Source: a virus (lineage: Duplodnaviria > Heunggongvirae > Uroviricota > Caudoviricetes). Taken from it: a stretch of 13,451 nt of DNA. A model generated the notes under the pieces. The model searched no databases. It saw only the letters and a program-made list of their open reading frames with translations, and had not been told where the DNA came from. A program made the translations under genes and the position numbers. This document shows positions 3,004-13,161 of the stretch, piece by piece. Location of the stretch: IMG/VR virus record IMGVR_UViG_2565956627_000012. The stretch is one strand, 5' to 3'. The first letter of the stretch is position 1. Each line of letters opens with the position of its first letter.

Positions 3004-3303
3004 ATGAAAAATAAAAATTCTGGCGTTACTGCCAGCGGCCCCGCTCGTCCTGAATTTATGAACGGCGATATTTACCGCGATAAATATGGCGGCATGGTAA
3101 CGATTAAAGGCGTGGCAGAACGGCGCATCACCTACCGCCGTGAAGGCTACGAATATGATTGCGTGATGCCTGTTTATCAGTTTCGGCGTGATTTTTCTCT
3201 GGTACAGGCAGCGCCCCGCAGTAAACCAACCAGCAGGGAGAAAGCACGCGCCAATATTCAGGAAATAAAAAAGATGCTTAACGTATTCAGGGGTAAAAAA
3301 TGA
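3004..3303 (+). CDS. Hypothetical protein (99 aa) immediately upstream of, and coupled to, the primase gene
   Basis: ATG at 3004 follows the upstream stop by 5 nt. Its stop overlaps the primase start (ATGA at 3300). Basic C-terminus. Confidence 0.5.
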   Translation: MKNKNSGVTASGPARPEFMNGDIYRDKYGGMVTIKGVAERRITYRREGYEYDCVMPVYQFRRDFSLVQAAPRSKPTSREKARANIQEIKKMLNVFRGKK

Positions 3304-5048
3304 AACTGGCACCGAACGTAAAAAAACAGCCACGCGGAATAAAACACAAAGACACAGAGGTAATTATTTTCGCGGGTAGTGATGCCTGGTCGCACGCGAA
3401 ACAATGGCAGGAGCAGGATGGCCCCGCATCCGGCGATAATGTGCCGCCTGTGTGGCTTGGGCCAAATCAGCTTGCCGAACTTGATGCGCTGAAAATTGTT
3501 CCGGATGGGAAAAAACGCGTAAGGCTGTACCAGGCCGGAGAACTGGATTTAGTGGAGACCAAAAAGATCGGTCAGAAGCTGGCGGCGGCAGATATTCAGG
3601 ATGCGAATTTTTACCCCGAAGGGGTGCACGGACAGAAATGTGAGAACTGGCGGCGCTATCTGAATGCTGAGCGTGAAAATATTGCCGCAGGGATCACCAT
3701 GCCGGAACAGAAAAAATCACAACTTTCACAGATGGCAGACAGTGAACGGGCACAGCTTCTTGCTTCCCGCTTTGATGGTGTCTGCGTCCATGCAGAAAGT
3801 GAAATCGTTCACGTATGGCGTGACGGGGTATGGTGTCCGGTCAGCACAATGGAACTGAGCCGCGAAATGGTGGCGGTTTATTCAGAACACGGGGCCACGT
3901 TCAGCAAGCGTGCAATTAATAACGCCGTTGAAGCGTTAAAAGTTATTGCTCAGCCAATGGGGGAGCCGTCCGGTGATTTGCTGCCGTTTGCCAATGGTGC
4001 GCTTGACCTGAGAACAGGGGAATTTTCCTCTCACCAGCCGGATAACTGGATCACCACACACAACGGCATTGAGTACACGCCGCCAGTACCAGGTGAGAAT
4101 ATCCGCGACAACGCGCCAAACTTTCATAAATGGCTTGATCACGCTGCCGGAAAAGACCCGGGCAAGATGATGCGCATATGTGCCGCGCTATACATGATTA
4201 TGGCGAACCGGTACGACTGGCAGATGTTTATTGAGGCCACCGGAGACGGCGGGAGCGGCAAGAGCACTTTCACGCACATAGCCAGCCTTCTGGCAGGGAA
4301 ACAGAACACCGTAAGCGCTGAGATGACATCACTCGATGATGCTGGTGGGCGTGCGCAGGTTGTCGGAAGTCGGCTTATTGTCCTGGCAGACCAGCCGAAA
4401 TATACAGGCGAAGGCACGGGCATCAAGAAAATCACGGGCGGCGACCCTGTGGAGATTAACCCGAAATATGAAAAGCGATTCACGACCATAATCAGGGCTG
4501 TGGTACTGGCGACCAACAACAACCCGATGATATTCACGGAACGGGCCGGAGGCGTGTCACGTCGTCGCGTGATTTTCCGTTTCGACAATATCGTCAGTGA
4601 GGCCGAAAAAGACAGAGAACTACCGGAAAAAATCGCGGCTGAAATCCCCGTCATTATCCGCCGCTTGCTGGCGAACTTTGCCAATCCTGAAAAGGCACGG
4701 GCTTTACTGATTGAGCAGCGTGACGGTGATGAAGCACTGGCAATAAAGCAACAGACGGATCCGGTTATTGAATTTTGCCAGTTCCTTAACTTTCTGGAAG
4801 AAGCACGCGGCCTGATGATGGGCGGCGGCGGTGACTCTTCCAGGTACACGACCAGAAACAGCCTTTACCGCGTCTATCTGGCGTTTATGGCGTATGTCGG
4901 CAGGAACAAGCCGCTGAACGTGGCTGAGTTCAGCAAAGCTATGAAGCCAGCGGCGAAAGTTTACGGACATGAATATATAACGCGCAGGATTAAAGGGATT
5001 ACGCAAACCAACGTGACAACAACAGACGACTGCGACGCGTTTTTATAA
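3300..5048 (+). CDS. Replication protein: primase / SF3-type helicase (phage-plasmid primase, P4-family-like C-terminal domain)
   Basis: 582 aa. Walker A P-loop 'GDGGSGKST' lies in the central/C-terminal part, and a Walker B-like 'RLIVLADQ' follows. Size and position (after alpA, before an iteron array) match satellite replication-initiator (Pri-Rep) genes. Confidence 0.85.
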   Translation: MKLAPNVKKQPRGIKHKDTEVIIFAGSDAWSHAKQWQEQDGPASGDNVPPVWLGPNQLAELDALKIVPDGKKRVRLYQAGELDLVETKKIGQKLAAADIQDANFYPEGVHGQKCENWRRYLNAERENIAAGITMPEQKKSQLSQMADSERAQLLASRFDGVCVHAESEIVHVWRDGVWCPVSTMELSREMVAVYSEHGATFSKRAINNAVEALKVIAQPMGEPSGDLLPFANGALDLRTGEFSSHQPDNWITTHNGIEYTPPVPGENIRDNAPNFHKWLDHAAGKDPGKMMRICAALYMIMANRYDWQMFIEATGDGGSGKSTFTHIASLLAGKQNTVSAEMTSLDDAGGRAQVVGSRLIVLADQPKYTGEGTGIKKITGGDPVEINPKYEKRFTTIIRAVVLATNNNPMIFTERAGGVSRRRVIFRFDNIVSEAEKDRELPEKIAAEIPVIIRRLLANFANPEKARALLIEQRDGDEALAIKQQTDPVIEFCQFLNFLEEARGLMMGGGGDSSRYTTRNSLYRVYLAFMAYVGRNKPLNVAEFSKAMKPAAKVYGHEYITRRIKGITQTNVTTTDDCDAFL

Positions 5049-5334: not shown

Positions 5335-5592
5335 ATGCACACTACAGAAAAACTTAACAATCAGAAGAAACCACACTACCGCGCTATTGACCTTACAGAG
5401 CACTGGCTGAGAGTGGCGATAAAAATCATCGACCGCAACACGGGGGAAGGATATGCGAAAGCACATCCTGAACTAATAAGCGCATTCATGACCACAGCGG
5501 CGGCAAACTTTGCCACGCTGACAGAACGGGAGATTGCCGAAGCGGAACAGGTAACAACCATCAACGTTAAAACCGGAGAGGTGGAATCATGA
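5335..5592 (+). CDS. Hypothetical protein (85 aa)
   Basis: ATG at 5335 with GAGGG upstream. Its stop overlaps the SSB-like start (ATGA). No recognisable motif. Confidence 0.5.
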   Translation: MHTTEKLNNQKKPHYRAIDLTEHWLRVAIKIIDRNTGEGYAKAHPELISAFMTTAAANFATLTEREIAEAEQVTTINVKTGEVES

Positions 5593-5999
5593 CAGCACAG
5601 ATAGCCGCTTACGGGCGGCTGGTGGCTGACCCGCAGTTAAAGACCACCAGCAAGGGCACACAAATGGCTATGGCAAGCATGGCGGTCCCCCTGCCGTGCA
5701 ATCAGGCAGATGACGGACAGGCGACGATGTGGTTATCCGTCCTGGCGTTTGGCAGACAGGCCGACGCACTGGCAAAACACCACAAAGGCGAGCTGGTGAG
5801 CGTGGCGGGTAACATGCAGGTAAGCCAGTGGACAGGCCAGAACGGCGAAACGCGGCAGGGCTGGCAGGTTATTGCAGACAGCGTAATCAGTGCCAGAACG
5901 GCGCGACCTGGTGGGAGCCGACGCAAGACCACAGGCACACAGGGTAATCAGCCACCAGCGGGAGGCGATGACCCTTACGGTGATGATATTCCGTTCTGA
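5589..5999 (+). CDS. ssb: Single-stranded DNA-binding protein (short SSB-like, OB-fold with acidic C-terminal tip)
   Basis: 136 aa. The N-terminus 'IAAYGRLVADPQLKTT...MAMASMAV' parallels the SSB OB-fold start. A Gly/Pro-rich linker 'RPGGSRRKTTGTQGNQPPAGG' is followed by the hallmark SSB tail 'DDPYGDDIPF' at the extreme C-terminus. Confidence 0.7.
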   Translation: MTAQIAAYGRLVADPQLKTTSKGTQMAMASMAVPLPCNQADDGQATMWLSVLAFGRQADALAKHHKGELVSVAGNMQVSQWTGQNGETRQGWQVIADSVISARTARPGGSRRKTTGTQGNQPPAGGDDPYGDDIPF

Positions 6000-6712: not shown

Positions 6713-6801
6713 GCCTGCATCGGTGTGCATTTCTTTTTGTTCTCGTACCGTGAGTCTTGCCGCGTCCTGGTGTTTTCCTCTTTGCATCAGGACTTTTTTT
6801 T

Positions 6802-7974
6802 ATGCCGAGAATTATCGAATTGCGCCAGCAGAAAACCGCCATCAAAAATCAGATGCGCGACATGCTGGAGAACGCGGAAAAAGAAAACCGCAGCCTTAAC
6901 GACGCCGAGGGCGCAAAATTTGACGAATTACGCGCTAAAGCTGAATCCCTCGATAAAGACATTTCCCGCCTTGAAGCCGTTGCCGACGAAGAGCGCAGCA
7001 AGCCAGGTAAAGCCAGCCAGACCACTGACCCCGCAGAACTTCGCAACTACATCGTAACGGGTGACGTTCGCTCATTATCCACCACCACCAACGGCGGCAA
7101 GGACGGTGGTTATACCGTTATCCCTGAGCTTGATCGCGAGGTTATGCGGTTACTGAGTGATGAAAGCGTCATGCGAATGATTGCGACCGTGAAAACGGCG
7201 AAATCAAACGAATATCAGAAACTGGTTTCCACAGGTGGCGCGGCTGTAAATTATGGAACCGAGGGCAGCAAGCGTAACGAAACCAACACCCCGAAAGTTG
7301 AGCGCGTAAGCATCAAACTTAACCCGATCTATGCCTACCCGAAAACCACACAGGAAATTCTGGATTTTTCAGAGGTGGACGTACTGGGCTGGTTATCGTC
7401 TGAAATCGCCGATACGTTCGCCACGACCGAAGAAGATGATTTTGTAAATGGTAATGGTACTGGCAAGCCGAAAGGTTTCCTGAGTTACAACCGAGATCTA
7501 ACCAACGACAAAACCCGCGCCTTTGGCACCATTGAAAAAATGGTAGCAGCAGCCGAAGCCGCCATTACAGCGGACGAACTGATCGACATCCTCTACAAGC
7601 TGAAAGCGAAATACCGTAAGAACGCCGTATGGGTGATGAACTCGAGCACAGCGGCAGCATTGCAGAAGCTGAAAAACCAGATCGGTGATTACGTATGGCG
7701 TGACAGCCTCAAAGAGGGCGCACCTGACACATTGCTGGGCCGTCCTGTTTATTACCTGGAAAGTATGCCGGACATCGGCAAAGGCAAAACGCCGCTGGCT
7801 GTCGGTGACTTTAAGCGCGGTTATTTCATCGTTGACCATGAAACGGGTATTCGTACCCGACCGGACAACATTACAGAGCCGGGTTTCTACAAGGTACACA
7901 CGGACAAATACATCGGCGGCGGGGTTGTTGACTCCCGCGCGATAAAAGTCCTCGAGATGAAAAACGGCGGTTAA
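6802..7974 (+). CDS. Major capsid protein, HK97 family, with N-terminal coiled-coil delta (scaffold-like) domain
   Basis: 390 aa from the ATG at 6802; the six-frame ORF starts at an upstream TTG. The N-terminal roughly 100 aa is charged and helical (delta-domain-like). The remainder has HK97-fold MCP character. No separate scaffold gene is present, consistent with HK97-type assembly. Confidence 0.85.
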   Translation: MPRIIELRQQKTAIKNQMRDMLENAEKENRSLNDAEGAKFDELRAKAESLDKDISRLEAVADEERSKPGKASQTTDPAELRNYIVTGDVRSLSTTTNGGKDGGYTVIPELDREVMRLLSDESVMRMIATVKTAKSNEYQKLVSTGGAAVNYGTEGSKRNETNTPKVERVSIKLNPIYAYPKTTQEILDFSEVDVLGWLSSEIADTFATTEEDDFVNGNGTGKPKGFLSYNRDLTNDKTRAFGTIEKMVAAAEAAITADELIDILYKLKAKYRKNAVWVMNSSTAAALQKLKNQIGDYVWRDSLKEGAPDTLLGRPVYYLESMPDIGKGKTPLAVGDFKRGYFIVDHETGIRTRPDNITEPGFYKVHTDKYIGGGVVDSRAIKVLEMKNGG

Positions 7975-8009: not shown

Positions 8010-8585
8010 ATGGGTGAAAAAAATATGAAAAAGAGCATGGAAATCCGGTCATCAGAAATCACCACCAGCGGAGCCAGTACGCTGACGGGTTACGTTGTTC
8101 GCTGGAATAACCTTTCTGATCTGCTATGGGGTGAGTTTTACGAAAAATTCCAGCGGGGGGCGTTCAGTGAGTGGCTGGCGGCGGGTAATGACGTTCGCGG
8201 CCTGTATGAGCACGACCACAGCATGTTACTGGGGCGTACCCGTTCCGGTACGCTGAAACTGGAAGAGGATGAAACAGGGTTACGCTTTGAACTGACCCCA
8301 CCGGATACCAGTACAGGGCGGGACGTTATCGAACTGGTTAAGCGTGGTGATATCTCGGGGATGAGCTTTGGCTTTCGTTCCCGTAAGGATGTATGGGATA
8401 CCACAACAGATCCATGCGTGCGCACCGTGCTGGTGGCGGAACTGTACGAAATTACCGTTACATCCGTACCGGCTTACCCTGATTCCGGCGTGGATCTGGC
8501 CCGCCGTTCCCTGTATGAGCAGCACCCCGAAAAAATGCCACGCGCGGATAATCGCCGCTGGTGGGCGGATTTAGCGGGGGTGTGA
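8010..8585 (+). CDS. Prohead maturation protease (HK97 family, peptidase S78/U35-like)
   Basis: 191 aa. A candidate catalytic His lies in 'LYEHDHS' and a candidate Ser in 'DISGMSFGF'. An alternative start ATG at 8025 has a better-spaced GGTGA. Its stop is followed 2 nt later by the portal start. Confidence 0.85.
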   Translation: MGEKNMKKSMEIRSSEITTSGASTLTGYVVRWNNLSDLLWGEFYEKFQRGAFSEWLAAGNDVRGLYEHDHSMLLGRTRSGTLKLEEDETGLRFELTPPDTSTGRDVIELVKRGDISGMSFGFRSRKDVWDTTTDPCVRTVLVAELYEITVTSVPAYPDSGVDLARRSLYEQHPEKMPRADNRRWWADLAGV

Positions 8586-8586
8586 T

Positions 8587-9801
8587 ATGTGGCCTTTCAG
8601 ACGAAAACAAGAGCATCGCAGCATGACGCTGGATGAATTTATGGCGCTGGCTGGCACATCGAACACGGGGGCGGGTGAGTACGTATCATCGGGGACAGCG
8701 GAATCACTCCCCGCCGTCATGAACGCCGTCACGGTCATCTCTGAGGCGGTGGCTACTATGCCATGCTACCTGTACCTGGTACGCAATGAGAAGGGGAAGG
8801 AGGCCCGCGAGTGGCTTGATTCTCATCCGGTCGATCATATCCTCAACGAGCGCCCGAACGCGTGGCAGACGCCCTATCAGTTTAAGCGAATGATGGTCCG
8901 CCACTGCCTGTTAAACGGTAATGCTTATGCGGTGATTCAGTGGGGGCGTGATGGTTTTCCGGTGGCTTTGCACCCTTACCCGCCGCAGTCGGTGAATGTT
9001 GAGCAGACAGGGGAACATAACTGGCGTTACCGCATCACTGACGCTTACAGCGGAAACACCCGCAACTATTTACCGTGGGAGGTTCTCCACCTTCGTTACT
9101 CCACGGATGACGGCTTTATGGGGCGCTCACCTGTGACCATCTGCCGCGAATCGCTGGGGCTTGGGCTGGCCCAACAGCGCCACGGCGCGAGCGTGATGCG
9201 TGATGGCATGATGGCAGCAGGGGTTATCACGTCAGGCGAATGGCTGGACGGCGTGAAGGGCAAACAGGCATTAGCCGCACTGGAACGCTACAAAGGAGCC
9301 AGAAACGCCGGAAAAACGCCCATTCTTGAAGGGGGTATGAGCTATCAGCGGCTTGGCATGAGTAACCAGGATGCTGAATGGCTGGCCTCCCGTCGCTTCA
9401 CCATTGAAGACATCGCCCGAATGTTCAACGTCTCGCCGATTTTTCTGCAGGAATACAGCAACAGCACCTACAGCAATTTCAGCGAGGCAAGCCGCGCATT
9501 TCTCACCATGACGATGCGCCCGTGGCTGGCGAACTTTGAGCAGCAGATAAAAAATGCTTTGCTGGTGGCCTCGCCTGTACCTGGTATCCGGTATCAGGTG
9601 GAGTTTGACAGCGCGGACCTGTTACGGGCCACACCTGGCGAACGCTTTGCCACCTATGAACGCGGCATCAAGTCCGGCGTTATGTGCCCGAACGAAGCCC
9701 GCGAACGTGAGGGATTATCGCCGCGTGATGGTGGCGATGAGTTCAGCCAGGCCTGGAAACAGGAGATCGAAGTAAAGGATGATAAAGAGGGCAAATCATG
9801 A
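8587..9801 (+). CDS. Portal protein (HK97-family-like)
   Basis: 404 aa. Size, position and sequence character fit a portal (for example 'FTIEDIARMFNVSPIFLQEYSNSTYSNFSEASRAFLTMTMRPW'). The stop overlaps the next start. Confidence 0.8.
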   Translation: MWPFRRKQEHRSMTLDEFMALAGTSNTGAGEYVSSGTAESLPAVMNAVTVISEAVATMPCYLYLVRNEKGKEAREWLDSHPVDHILNERPNAWQTPYQFKRMMVRHCLLNGNAYAVIQWGRDGFPVALHPYPPQSVNVEQTGEHNWRYRITDAYSGNTRNYLPWEVLHLRYSTDDGFMGRSPVTICRESLGLGLAQQRHGASVMRDGMMAAGVITSGEWLDGVKGKQALAALERYKGARNAGKTPILEGGMSYQRLGMSNQDAEWLASRRFTIEDIARMFNVSPIFLQEYSNSTYSNFSEASRAFLTMTMRPWLANFEQQIKNALLVASPVPGIRYQVEFDSADLLRATPGERFATYERGIKSGVMCPNEAREREGLSPRDGGDEFSQAWKQEIEVKDDKEGKS

Positions 9802-10136
9802 GAGCGGGGAGCATGAGGGATCGCATTGTCATCATGAGCGCGAAACTTTCCCGCCTCCCTTCCGGTGCAATGAAAAGCACATGGGAGGATGTTGCCACCG
9901 TATGGGCGGAGGTGAAAGGGATCAGCGGACGGGAACGCATGACCGCAGGTGCAGAAACGGCACAGGCAACCGTAAGAGTCTGGATCCGTTTTCGTGTGGA
10001 TGTTACGGCATCCAGCCGGATACGGGTACTCACGGGGGCTTATTCCGGCAATGAGCTTGATATTGTTGGCCCCCCCGTTCCCGACGGTAAAAGGACTCGT
10101 CTGGAAATTCTTTGTAAAACAGGTGCGCCACGATGA
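9798..10136 (+). CDS. Head-tail adaptor / head closure protein (Phage_H_T_join-like)
   Basis: 112 aa. Pattern 'DRIVI...W.DVATVWAEVKGISGRE...A....ATVRVWIRFRVDVT...RI......LDIV......G.RTRLEILC' matches the head-tail joining family as recalled. Start is translationally coupled (ATGA overlap). Confidence 0.65.
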   Translation: MRAGSMRDRIVIMSAKLSRLPSGAMKSTWEDVATVWAEVKGISGRERMTAGAETAQATVRVWIRFRVDVTASSRIRVLTGAYSGNELDIVGPPVPDGKRTRLEILCKTGAPR

Positions 10137-10429
10137 CAGCAGAATTAATCACCCTGGAAGAAGTGAAACTCCATTGCCGCATTGATGGCAATGAGGAAGA
10201 CCAGTTAATCAGCGGATACATCGCCGCCGCGCTTGAGGTGTGCCAGAAACACATCGGCAGGCGCTTTGATGACGGGCTGGAGTTCACGCCAGCCATAAAG
10301 ATTGGCTGCATGATGTACGTGTCGCAACTGTACGAATACAGGGCCACGGTCGGGGATGGAGACACAAAAGAAATCCCGCTGGCTGTAGGGATGCTCTGGT
10401 CGGTTTATCGTGATGTGGGGGTGTACTGA
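10133..10429 (+). CDS. gp6-like head-tail connector protein
   Basis: 98 aa. The N-terminal 'ITLEEVKLHCRIDGNEEDQLISGYIAAALEVCQ' matches the gp6-like connector family pattern (L.E.K.H.R.D...ED.LI...I.AA). Overlapping start/stop with both neighbours. Confidence 0.7.
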   Translation: MTAELITLEEVKLHCRIDGNEEDQLISGYIAAALEVCQKHIGRRFDDGLEFTPAIKIGCMMYVSQLYEYRATVGDGDTKEIPLAVGMLWSVYRDVGVY

Positions 10430-10869
10430 TGCCGTGGCAACCATTAAGACGATGCACAGAACCAGGCTGTAACAGGCGCGTTAAATCCGGCAAGTGTGAG
10501 GAGCACAGGCGGGCGGCATGGCGTGCAGAGGATGCCAGACGAGGACACCGCCGCGCGCGTGGGTACTCCAGACAGTGGGACAAATACCGCGCCATGTATC
10601 TGAGTAAAAATCCGTTATGCGTGCGATGCCTTGAGAAGGGGATATATACGCCCGCCGTGGTGGTGGATCACATTATCCCGATTAATGGCGGTGATGATGT
10701 TCTCTTCTGGCCCGAATGGAACCATCAACCATTGTGTCAGGCGTGTCATAACCAGAAAACGAAATGGCTTGATCCGGCAACAAAAAGCAAGCGTGCCGCA
10801 GGTGGATTTCGTGAAGAGGAAGAACGGGCCGCTAACCGCAATAACTGGATGTATGACGCTGATGAATGA
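10429..10869 (+). CDS. HNH endonuclease (terminase-associated, cos-phage type)
   Basis: 146 aa. An N-terminal Cys cluster 'CTEPGCNRRVKSGKCEEH' is followed by the HNH core 'VDHIIPINGGDD...NHQPLCQACHNQKT'. It sits directly upstream of the terminase genes, as in HK97-like cos phages. Confidence 0.85.
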   Translation: MPWQPLRRCTEPGCNRRVKSGKCEEHRRAAWRAEDARRGHRRARGYSRQWDKYRAMYLSKNPLCVRCLEKGIYTPAVVVDHIIPINGGDDVLFWPEWNHQPLCQACHNQKTKWLDPATKSKRAAGGFREEEERAANRNNWMYDADE

Positions 10870-11035
10870 GCGGGAACAAAACCGCCTTATCCGTGGACTT
10901 ATAAGGCAGCGTGACGCATGGAAGACACAGGAAACAGGGCATAAAGATAAAGCGTCAGGACGCGCAGAACGCATCACAGCGAAGCGATTAACCGACCGTG
11001 ACCGCGAGGTTATGGAATGTTTCCGCAATCGCTGA
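10862..11035 (+). CDS. Possible small basic ORF (57 aa) between HNH and terS; uncertain
   Basis: ATG at 10862 overlaps the HNH 3' end. The product is Arg/Lys-rich ('MNEREQNRLIRGLIRQRDAWK...'). No convincing RBS. It is the only candidate filling the 290-bp gap. Confidence 0.25.
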   Translation: MNEREQNRLIRGLIRQRDAWKTQETGHKDKASGRAERITAKRLTDRDREVMECFRNR

Positions 11036-11044
11036 TGAGGCTGT

Positions 11045-11075
11045 ATGACGGGGTGGGGGGGGCGTTTTCAGGACA
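11045..11075. other. Putative cos (cohesive-end) region
   Basis: G-rich block ACGGGGTGGGGGGGGCGTTTTC (11048-11069) in the HNH-terS gap. It resembles lambdoid cosN-proximal sequence (ACGGGGCGGCGACCTCGCGGGTTTTCGC) as recalled. Location is typical for cos in HNH-dependent packaging systems. Confidence 0.3.
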
Positions 11076-11159
11076 AACCCGACCCCGCCGGGCACCGAAC
11101 GCCTCCTCAAATTTTTATGCACGGGAATTTTTTGAAAAATAATCTGACGAAAAATAAGC

Positions 11160-11516
11160 ATGGCAAGACCACCGAAAGCCCCCGCCTACCTGGATGATAT
11201 CGCCGTGAAGCAGTGGCGGGAAAAATCGCGGCAGCTTGCGGAACGGGGAGACCTGACCCCCGCCGACTGGAGCAATCTGGAACTGTATTGCGTCAACTAC
11301 TCCATTTACCGGAAAGCCGTTGCAGACCTTGCGGCGCGCGGGTTCAGCATTGTTAACAGTCAGGGCGGCGAGAGCAGAAACCCCGCATTAAGCGCAAAAT
11401 CCGACGCTGAAAGAGTGATGATAAAAATGGCCTCCTTGCTCGGTTTTGACCCGATAAGCCGCCGTAAAAATCCACCGGAAACAGAAGAAGAGGACGAGCT
11501 TGACCGCCTGGAATAA
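11160..11516 (+). CDS. terS: Terminase small subunit (P27 family-like)
   Basis: 118 aa. The pattern 'W.NLELYCVNYSIYRKAVADLAARGFSI...G..RNPA....SDAERVMIKMASLLGFDPISRRK' matches the P27-family TerS signature as recalled. It lies directly upstream of terL and overlaps it. Confidence 0.8.
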   Translation: MARPPKAPAYLDDIAVKQWREKSRQLAERGDLTPADWSNLELYCVNYSIYRKAVADLAARGFSIVNSQGGESRNPALSAKSDAERVMIKMASLLGFDPISRRKNPPETEEEDELDRLE

Positions 11517-13161
11517 GTACGCAGAAGACGTAAAAACGGGCAAAATTCCGGCCTGTAAACGGTTAAAACAGGCTGTTAAACGGTACTTTTCGGACCTTAA
11601 AAGCCCCCTTTACACGTTCGATCGTGAGGTTGTGGAGCGGTTTATTGCCTTTTCCAGGGTGTGCCCGCACGTAAAAGGACCGATGCGTGGCAGACCCATT
11701 GAGCTGGAGCCGTGGCAGCAGTTCGCCTTTGCGTGCATCCTCGGCTTTAAGGTTAAGGCCACCGGACGGCGCAAATACACGAGCGCCTTTATCGAAGTGC
11801 CGCGCAAAAATGCGAAATCCACGACCGCCGCGATTCTGGCTAACTGGTTTCTGATTATGGAGAACGGTCAGCAGGATATCTACACCGCAGCGGTGAGCCG
11901 TGACCAGGCGCGGATCGTCTTTGATGATGCGCGTCAGATGTGCCTTTTATCCCGACCGTTACGCAGGCGGGTGAATATTCAGGCGCATAAGGTGATACAC
12001 CCGAAAACCAACAGCCTGTTAAAGCCACTGGCAGCAAAAGCGGCAACCATTGAGGGGACAAACCCGAGTCTTGCCATTGTGGATGAATATCACCTGCACC
12101 CAGACAACGGGGTTTATTCCGCACTTGATATGGGGATGGGCGCACGTCCCGAAGGGCTGTTATTTGCCATTACCACATCGGGCAGTAACGTCGTTTCAGC
12201 CTGTAAGCAGCACTATGATTATTGCTGCCAGATCCTGGACGGCGAAGAGGTCAACGATTCAATTTTTGTACTGATTTACGAACTGGACGACGAAAACGAG
12301 GTTGATGATCCGGCGATGTGGATAAAGGCTAACCCTAACATCGATGTTTCCGTCGATCGTGAAAAACTGGCCTCAACCATCCAGAAAGCGCGGGGTATTC
12401 CGTCGCAATGGGTGGAAATGCTCACCAAGCGATTCAATATCTGGTGTCAGGGGGCTACGCCGTGGATGGGTAACGGTGCATGGGCGGAGTGTGCCGGAAC
12501 GTTCGCGGAGGCGGATTTATACGGGCAGGAGTGCTACGCGGGGCTGGACTTATCATCAACCAGCGATATTTCCAGCGTGTGCTATGCCTTCCCGGTCGGT
12601 AAAAAGATTATGCTGGTTTCCCGTCACTATCTGCCGGAATTTCAGCTACAGAATCCCGCCAATAAAAACCGCGCCATCTATCGCCAGTGGGTAAAGGCGG
12701 GCTGGATACGCACAACACCGGGTGACTGCATTGATTATGACCGTATCCGTGATGACATCATGGCGGATGCAGAGAATTTCAATATCAGGCTGGTGGGCTT
12801 CGATACATGGAACGCCACGCACCTGAGGACGCAGTTACAGGGCGCAGGATTTGAGGTGGAGCCGTTCCCGCAAACCTACCTCAGATTCAGTCCGGCGGCG
12901 AAATCGTTCGAAGTTTTTGTTAACCGGAAGGTGATTGTGCATCGTGGTGATCCGGTGCTGGCCTGGTCAATGAGTAATGTTGTGATGCAGAGTGACGCGA
13001 ACGCCAATATCAAGCCGAACAAGAAAAAATCATCCAACAAGATAGACCCGAGCGTTGCGGCGCTGATGGCGTTTGGCACATTCCAGGCAGAGCACGAGGA
13101 CTTTGCATTCGATATGAGCGACAGCCACAAAGAGCGGCTTGCGGCGTTTGATGGGGTATGA
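11500..13161 (+). CDS. terL: Terminase large subunit (Terminase_1-like ATPase plus nuclease)
   Basis: 553 aa. Conserved N-terminal block 'WNKYAEDVKTGKIPACKRLKQAVKRYFSDL...YTFD'. A P-loop-like 'VPRKNAKSTTAA' and Walker B-like 'LAIVDEYHL' are present. The apparent start is TTG at 11500, with GAGGA 5 nt upstream, overlapping the terS 3' end. Confidence 0.9.
   Translation: MTAWNKYAEDVKTGKIPACKRLKQAVKRYFSDLKSPLYTFDREVVERFIAFSRVCPHVKGPMRGRPIELEPWQQFAFACILGFKVKATGRRKYTSAFIEVPRKNAKSTTAAILANWFLIMENGQQDIYTAAVSRDQARIVFDDARQMCLLSRPLRRRVNIQAHKVIHPKTNSLLKPLAAKAATIEGTNPSLAIVDEYHLHPDNGVYSALDMGMGARPEGLLFAITTSGSNVVSACKQHYDYCCQILDGEEVNDSIFVLIYELDDENEVDDPAMWIKANPNIDVSVDREKLASTIQKARGIPSQWVEMLTKRFNIWCQGATPWMGNGAWAECAGTFAEADLYGQECYAGLDLSSTSDISSVCYAFPVGKKIMLVSRHYLPEFQLQNPANKNRAIYRQWVKAGWIRTTPGDCIDYDRIRDDIMADAENFNIRLVGFDTWNATHLRTQLQGAGFEVEPFPQTYLRFSPAAKSFEVFVNRKVIVHRGDPVLAWSMSNVVMQSDANANIKPNKKKSSNKIDPSVAALMAFGTFQAEHEDFAFDMSDSHKERLAAFDGV

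Follow-up and report, generated by a model that had tools for sequence, protein, structure and literature searches.

A conserved G-rich block upstream of the predicted cos cleavage site of an Escherichia coli capsid-forming PICI

We identified a G-rich block (the G-block) in the 124-nt gap (11036-11159) between the stop codon of a 57-aa ORF (ending at 11035) and the terS ATG at 11160 in the window, the whole 13,451-nt stretch of DNA analysed here (IMG/VR record IMGVR_UViG_2565956627_000012). Our main reading, to which we assign a probability of about 0.7, is that the gap serves as cos for a capsid-forming PICI (cf-PICI) and falls in the HNH-dependent HK97/SfV class with a 3′ overhang, and that the G-block is an upstream subsite that is not cut. 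In relatives, cos is located in the HNH-terS gap, and cutting leaves the ends separated by a gap of 10 nt.

The cf-PICIs are widespread satellites. They produce capsids of their own, in which no DNA but theirs is packaged, and borrowed tails allow them to move between species. We found no published map of a cf-PICI cos in the literature searched; the cut is placed here to within 1-2 nt. The ~95-nt module consisting of the G-block, a spacer, a C-rich 10-mer and a TerS site may represent the minimal packaging signal for experiments and for engineering of cf-PICI-based DNA delivery. It also provides a sequence signature for recognising cf-PICIs and for spotting packaging-dead copies.

Gene content of the island

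Genes for integration, replication, capsid formation and packaging were identified across the window using Pfam, supplemented by PHROG for two genes near the gap:

1-1239: tyrosine integrase (int)
1562-1858: AlpA
3300-5048: D5-like primase
5589-5999: SSB
6757-7974: HK97-fold capsid
8010-8585: S78 protease
8587-9801: portal
9798-10136: head completion
10133-10429: connector
10429-10869, + strand: HNH endonuclease, the packaging accessory nuclease (Pfam HNH PF01844, E 1.8e-8; PHROG 144 HNH, E 8e-45)
10862-11035, + strand: 57-aa ORF located between HNH and cos (PHROG 3173, a family of unknown function, E 6e-37)
11160-11516, + strand: terS, P27/Terminase_4 small terminase (Pfam PF05119, E 1.3e-23)
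11500-13161, + strand: terL, large terminase of the HK97 gp2 type (Pfam TerL_ATPase PF03354 and TerL_nuclease PF20441)

No tail or lysis genes were identified among the Pfam-assigned genes of the window. This gene order without tail genes is the cf-PICI layout, and EcCIEDL933-type cf-PICIs have the same layout as the window (bioRxiv 10.1101/2022.09.08.507074). By gene content, the element is an E. coli cf-PICI. It combines an integrase, alpA, a replication module and the genes from capsid to TerL, and agrees with the ~10-18 kb of such islands; the window stops inside the island, and the right border lies outside the sequence examined. The HNH-terS region was found in 534 of 5426 complete E. 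coli genomes, and every copy is chromosomal.

By BLASTP, the HNH protein is related to HK97 gp74 (E 2e-19) and to SfV orf53 (E 6e-17), and TerL to HK97 gp2 (27% identity, E 4e-48). TerS is ~36% identical to those of SfV, SfI and ST64B, with no detectable similarity to HK97 gp1 (E 2.4). The 57-aa ORF has no Pfam match, and its RefSeq relatives are labelled hypothetical protein. Small hypothetical ORFs also occupy the position between HNH and cos in Psymv2 (orf23) and AbIPP1, unrelated phages with this type of cos. A small ORF at this position may be a packaging accessory.

Predicted location of the cos cut

The metagenomic contig IMGVR_UViG_3300022664_000095 (15,518 nt) is a complete cf-PICI that runs from cos to cos, with TerS at nt 61, int in the middle and HNH at the end. 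It starts with CTCAAATTTTTACGC (CTCAAATTTTTACGCACGG) and ends with ...CAAGGCAC (...GGCAC), and integrated relatives (95-97% identity) read ...GGCAC CACCCGCCCC CTCAAATTT... The contig lacks exactly the 10 nt (CACCCGCCCC) present in these relatives and begins exactly at the equivalent of window position 11106. The 10-nt gap is read as a 3′ overhang because an end-repaired 3′ overhang leaves such a signature, as in SfI, for which run-off sequencing gave the same kind of 10-nt gap, TGCCCGCCCC (PMC3636060). The form found in relatives is thus linear, unit-length DNA with a ~10-nt 3′ overhang, the polarity of which is deduced from the gap.

Another linear assembly is vB_KppS-Ant (LR881103), a raw contig assembled with SPAdes after Nextera XT sequencing of particle DNA, which was obtained by induction of Klebsiella pneumoniae DSM 30104 (PMC8006926). 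Its order is permuted relative to the prophage. The contig ends with ...GGGGTGGGGGAGGTTTTCAGGAC, 12 nt 3′ of the G-block, and starts with ACGAAAAGG..., 22 nt 5′ of terS; the DSM 30104 chromosome has 69 additional nt between these ends, including the 10-mer. Terminal loss of this kind would be expected from tagmentation of a linear molecule. He et al. report that the cf-PICI KpCIDSM30104 has cohesive cos ends, and we take it to be the same element, given the shared strain designation.

Contig L425, which comes from E. coli and is of the same type as the window, ends with ...GCCGGGCACC, the equivalent of 11096. This is 1 nt off the predicted nick and suggests that the nick could lie 1 nt further right than predicted. 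Among the IMG/VR and metagenome matches, most loci are provirus calls or arbitrary chunks (L377 and L404 stop at chunk borders rather than at contig ends), which left three informative true contig ends (L436/L563, L425 and L305). The L305 end, 4 nt past the G-block pattern, looks like unrelated G-rich context.

Based on three independent lines (vB_KppS-Ant, contig 3300022664_000095 and L425), we place cleavage downstream of the G-block. In both linear assemblies the G-block is whole on one end, together with 12 and 34 more nt. A preliminary description had reported a G-rich 22-mer in the HNH-terS gap, and this sequence (ACGGGGTGGGGGGGGCGTTTTC, 11048-11069, + strand) is present as described. 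It had also raised the possibility of an own cos of the island beside its own HNH, TerS and TerL, with which the ends of two related cf-PICI linear assemblies in the gap agree. Its suggestion that the G-rich sequence is the cos stands in part: the block is a conserved part of the cos region, but the ends of relatives lie 33 nt downstream, so it is not the cleavage site. That possession of an own cos would account for the selective packaging of island DNA is in line with the cf-PICI literature (bioRxiv 10.1101/2022.09.08.507074).

The cos region of the window is predicted to contain the following elements (bits per position are from the 34-locus alignment described below):

11050-11062, + strand: G-block GGGGTGGGGGGGG, proposed upstream cos subsite, with the conserved core GGTGGGGG at 11052-11059
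11065-11077, + strand: TTTTCAGGACAAA, semi-conserved segment 3′ of the G-block (mean 1.13 bits)
11078-11092, + strand: 15-nt spacer, variable in sequence and constant in length (0.48 bits, indel-free)
11096-11105, + strand: predicted cosN with the 10-nt 3′ overhang CGAACGCCTC, from alignment with the termini of relatives
11106-11124, + strand: CTCAAATTTTTATGCACGG, the most conserved block, first bases of the predicted left genome end (1.5-1.7 bits)
11120-11134, + strand: CACGGGAATTTTTTG, putative TerS binding site (+15 to +29), by analogy with HK97

The window 10-mer aligns with CACCCGCCCC (from which it differs at 4 positions), with the SfI gap TGCCCGCCCC and with the sequences at the right-hand termini of the HK97 and D3 records. 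Transferred from the relatives by this alignment, the bottom-strand nick is predicted at 11095/11096 and the top-strand nick at 11105/11106, with an uncertainty of ~1-2 nt. The left end of the island would then read CTCAAATTTTT from 11106. The nearer predicted nick is 33 nt downstream of the G-block, which would fall wholly on the right (last-packaged) end. HK97 TerS binds CTAACCCGATTTTTT at +15 to +29, where a G/C triplet precedes a T-tract (PMC11331095). Such a triplet and T-tract also occur at the same offset in the window, and by this analogy 11120-11134 is the putative TerS site.

Conservation and spacing of the G-block

The G-block is the most G-dense 13-mer of the window (12 of 13) and contains its only run of eight G. 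However, judged within the window alone, the motif is statistically unremarkable: GGGGTGGGGG with at most one mismatch is expected 0.99 times per window and has at least one match in 123 of 200 shuffles. What raises the G-block above chance is its conservation across divergent loci.

We aligned 34 gaps from Enterobacterales, Aeromonas, Orbaceae and Pasteurellaceae (four orders), the TerS proteins of which are 64-84% identical to that of the window. The core GGTGGGGG is nearly invariant in these loci (1.8 bits per position). Values are 0.21 bits per position in the 12 nt that precede the G-block, 0.48 in the 15-nt spacer 3′ of it and 1.5-1.7 in the cleavage/TerS core, where the T-tract and GAAAATA near the putative TerS site are almost invariant. 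Within the segment at 11065-11077, GAC-AAA is kept in Enterobacterales, and TCAAA is found in other lineages and in HK97, D3 and SfV.

Spacing is also conserved. The 34-locus alignment is essentially free of indels from the G-block to the downstream core. Among 128 distinct sequences that hold the downstream core motif, 125 have a run of at least four G, and in 124 of these 125 the run ends 44-52 nt upstream of CAAATTTTT. The three sequences that have no G-run look like unrelated chance matches.

The length of the G-run varies among close relatives. The run at 11055-11062 (after GGGGT) has 8 G in the window and is the longest of its sequence type; relatives of the same type have 5 (2 loci), 6 (43 loci) or 7 G (4 loci), and the region is 2-3 nt shorter in the closest complete E. 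coli genomes. These differences reflect either homopolymer slippage or a sequencing artefact. With 5-8 G among near-identical islands, the element appears to tolerate shifts of 1-3 nt at one edge.

The 3′ part of the G-block (11058-11066, GGGGGCGTT) is complementary at 8 of 9 positions to the predicted cut site (11098-11106, AACGCCTCC), and the joined ends of SfV contain an equivalent pair (GGGGCGGG/CCCGCCCC). This dyad of G-run and C-run, ~31 nt apart, recurs across systems. Covariation between the G-block and cosN could not be shown.

Comparison with known cos systems

The predicted cos lies between the HNH gene and terS-terL, and its C-rich cosN of 9-10 nt is followed by an A/T-rich stretch that can be aligned with the known ends of SfV, HK97 and D3. 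HNH and TerL are homologous to gp74 and gp2. TerS is not of the gp1 family but of the Terminase_4/P27 family, as in SfV, which places the window's cos in the SfV/P27 subgroup of the HK97-type class. In the window, GGGGTGGGGGGGG is 33 nt upstream of the predicted overhang CGAACGCCTC, which is followed by CTCAAATTTTTATGCACGGGAATTTTTTG. The counterparts of the 22-mer are the G-runs 5′ of the 3′-overhang cos sites of D3, HK97 and SfV, and its similarity to those of D3 and HK97 is above chance.

HK97 and HK022 have the same order (HNH, cos, terS, terL) as the window, and the cos layout of HK022 is that of HK97. In HK97, whose HNH and TerL are homologous to those of the island, the G-run GGGCAGGGGGGGGG is 32 nt upstream of the C-rich terminal 10-mer CGCCGCCAAA, which is followed by GTTTGAATTT (GTTTGAATTTAACGCTAACCCGATTTTTTT). 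Its similarity to the window 22-mer is reached by 16 of 2000 shuffles, and ACGC occurs at +12 to +15, the same offset as in the window. HK97 is a phage, whereas the cos of the window belongs to a satellite, and the TerS proteins have no detectable sequence similarity. The overhang and TerS-site sequences of HK97 are also unlike those of the island, and packaging by the island and by an HK97-type helper would therefore stay separate.

SfI, SfV and ST64B encode TerS proteins of the same P27/Terminase_4 family (~36% identical), and the HNH of SfV is homologous to that of the island. In SfV and ST64B, the G-block GGGGAGGGGCGGG is 31 nt upstream of the overhang TGCCCGCCCC, followed by ATCGTTTTTTT. 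The overhang of these phages is identical at 8 of 10 positions to the Klebsiella-type cf-PICI 10-mer, with a T-run next to it, and the window 10-mer CGAACGCCTC is more diverged from it. The downstream, putative TerS region of SfV and ST64B (ATACCCGCGAAAAATGAAATTTAA) differs from that of the window. Unlike the island, SfI, SfV and ST64B are full phages with tails and lysis genes.

In D3, GGGGTGGGGCGGG agrees with the G-block of the window at 12 of 13 positions (reached by 2 of 2000 shuffles). The C-rich right end ...CGCGCCCCCA, which is followed by GGTCTTTTT, lies 30-31 nt downstream of this G-run. D3 has an HNH gene upstream and terS downstream of cos, as in the window, but the host and the downstream sequence differ. 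The D3 overhang is 9 nt long. In Clostridium phage PhiS63, GGTGGGG is 32 nt upstream of the overhang CGCAGTGTCTA, which is repeated at both ends of the record, and the HNH-terS gaps of Psymv2 and AbIPP1 have a similar layout. Streptococcus phage Sfi21 (15-nt 3′ overhang) has a C-run upstream and no G-run; thus, the element is not universal.

The lambda cos has three parts: cosQ on the last-packaged end (for termination), the nicking site cosN and the downstream TerS-binding region cosB (PMC6739421). The position of cosQ is that held by the G-block in the window. Lambda otherwise differs from the island, with a 12-nt 5′ overhang, no HNH and terminases of the gpNu1/gpA families; Pfam assigns the island proteins to Terminase_4, TerL_ATPase/TerL_nuclease and HNH. 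Other phage satellites, such as EcCICFT073 with Rpp, the cos SaPIs and P4, also carry cos for packaging. These use a helper-like cosN or redirect the TerS of the helper, whereas cf-PICIs have their own TerS, TerL and HNH and a cos of their own specificity.

Possible functions of the G-block

Under our main reading, the island TerS (P27 family) would bind the T-rich site upstream of terS (~11120-11140), and TerL and HNH would nick twice, 10 nt apart, in the C-rich 10-mer CGAACGCCTC (11096-11105). The product would be unit-length island DNA with 10-nt 3′ cohesive ends. In HK97, cleavage of cos requires HNH together with TerL and TerS (PMC9410871). The G-block (11050-11062) would remain uncut, as a third, upstream subsite on the last-packaged end, separated from the nearer nick by a constant 33 nt, or about three helical turns. 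It may be read by the cleavage machinery, HNH and/or TerL, possibly also by the portal during termination, and this would help to place or license the cut once the motor reaches the next cos. The conservation and position of the G-block lead us to infer a function as a recognition subsite upstream of the cut, placed as cosQ is in lambda. The HNH and TerL of the island are homologous to those of HK97 and the TerS is not, so that the shared G-run tracks HNH/TerL rather than the TerS family. HNH and/or TerL are therefore the favoured readers.

A broader proposal is more tentative, and we consider it somewhat less likely to be right than wrong. The G-run (core GGTGGGG) may be an undescribed third subsite that HNH-dependent cos systems have in common, at a set distance of 30-33 bp 5′ of the 3′ overhang, in a range extending from Clostridium phages through HK97, D3 and SfV to the cf-PICIs. 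HNH or HNH-TerL would read it in order to position the second nick or to license cleavage at termination. If so, it would be the long-missing cosQ equivalent of the HK97 model system, for which we found no published mapping of an upstream element in the literature searched. The G-block provides a cheaply testable candidate for an upstream cos element in that system.

Conservation of the G-block could instead reflect a role after cleavage, for example to retain or place the end packaged last within the portal/neck channel or to prime the ejection of DNA via foreign tails. The right end, from which the block is 33-46 bp away, remains in the virion, and with ~25 bp of DNA inside the TerL ring (PMC10359639) the block would be at the portal when cos is cut; moreover, cf-PICI capsids have to dock to heterologous tails. 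We nevertheless consider this role unlikely, as the element also occurs in ordinary phages with different portals and necks (HK97, D3, SfV and PhiS63) and reading of DNA sequence is known for no portal. Action at the level of RNA or transcription, as a pause site, attenuator or translational element for terS-terL in the late operon, is highly improbable. The gap is intercistronic in a co-directional operon, the G-block is ~100 nt upstream of terS, and one Xenorhabdus variant with five GGGGTA repeats could form a G-quadruplex. However, two G-tracts are insufficient for an intramolecular quadruplex, and constant spacing to the cut site would be left unexplained. Searches of the gap gave no terminator-like sites and no Rfam matches; folding z-scores were 0.22 and 0.80, and the only sigma-70-like match is on the minus strand, with none on the + strand. 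A hairpin or terminator formed by the inverted repeat CGGGGTGGGG/CCCGACCCCG was rejected, as the second arm (11078-11087) is not conserved in relatives and folding is no better than in shuffles.

Common ancestry of all cf-PICI loci might account for a functionless G-block conserved by descent alone, and a Chi-like signal could shield the end from RecBCD. The sequence GGTGG is part of E. coli Chi (GCTGGTGG) and is also found in the G-block. We regard both ideas as scarcely plausible. Adjacent non-coding positions are near random (0.2-0.5 bits, compared with 1.8 bits in the core), and the element recurs in phages with unrelated TerS and in a Clostridium phage. A Chi-like site was rejected because the G-block mismatches Chi at 2 of 8 positions and Chi does not need fixed spacing. 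It is barely credible that the G-block is itself cosN, with a cohesive end within GGGGTGGGGGGGG as in lambda: it is G/C-rich, like many cohesive ends, and superficially matches lambda ACGGGGCGG...TTTTC, but the linear assemblies of both relatives keep the whole block on one end. The likeness to lambdoid cosN-flanking sequence noted in the preliminary description is at chance level (the best local score against lambda cosN, GGGCGGCGACCT, is 7, matched by 481 of 2000 shuffles), and TerS and TerL are not of the lambda families.

Variant and atypical loci

In Xenorhabdus hominickii, the G-block upstream of terS consists of five tandem GGGGTA units (GGGGTAGGGGTAGGGGTAGGGGTAGGGGTA), and the remaining cos module is intact. 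The genome of Pasteurellaceae bacterium Macca has at least eight loci with related terS genes; in most of these, the sequence upstream is of another kind and contains neither the G-block nor the conserved core.

The source paper for LR881103 describes a filamentous ssDNA phage, and the GenBank name is Escherichia phage. The record encodes capsid, portal, protease, HNH, TerS, TerL, integrase and primase, and an ORF 3′ of terL is annotated as tape measure protein. This element is apparently the cf-PICI carried by K. pneumoniae DSM 30104. An unannotated stretch of Klebsiella phage P12620-1 (PQ569648; 106.5 kb), at ~nt 90645-91143, is ~80-88% identical to cf-PICI terS and may be an assembly chimera or captured satellite DNA.

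The island of Shigella flexneri SFBU1023 (CP182556, ~nt 2469-2540) keeps the G-block and has lost ~95 nt, with ...GACCCCGCC joined directly to TACCTGGATGAT (~terS codon 10). The deletion is apparently bounded by short CCCCGCC direct repeats. As the predicted cut site, TerS site and terS start are deleted, this island is probably packaging-dead.
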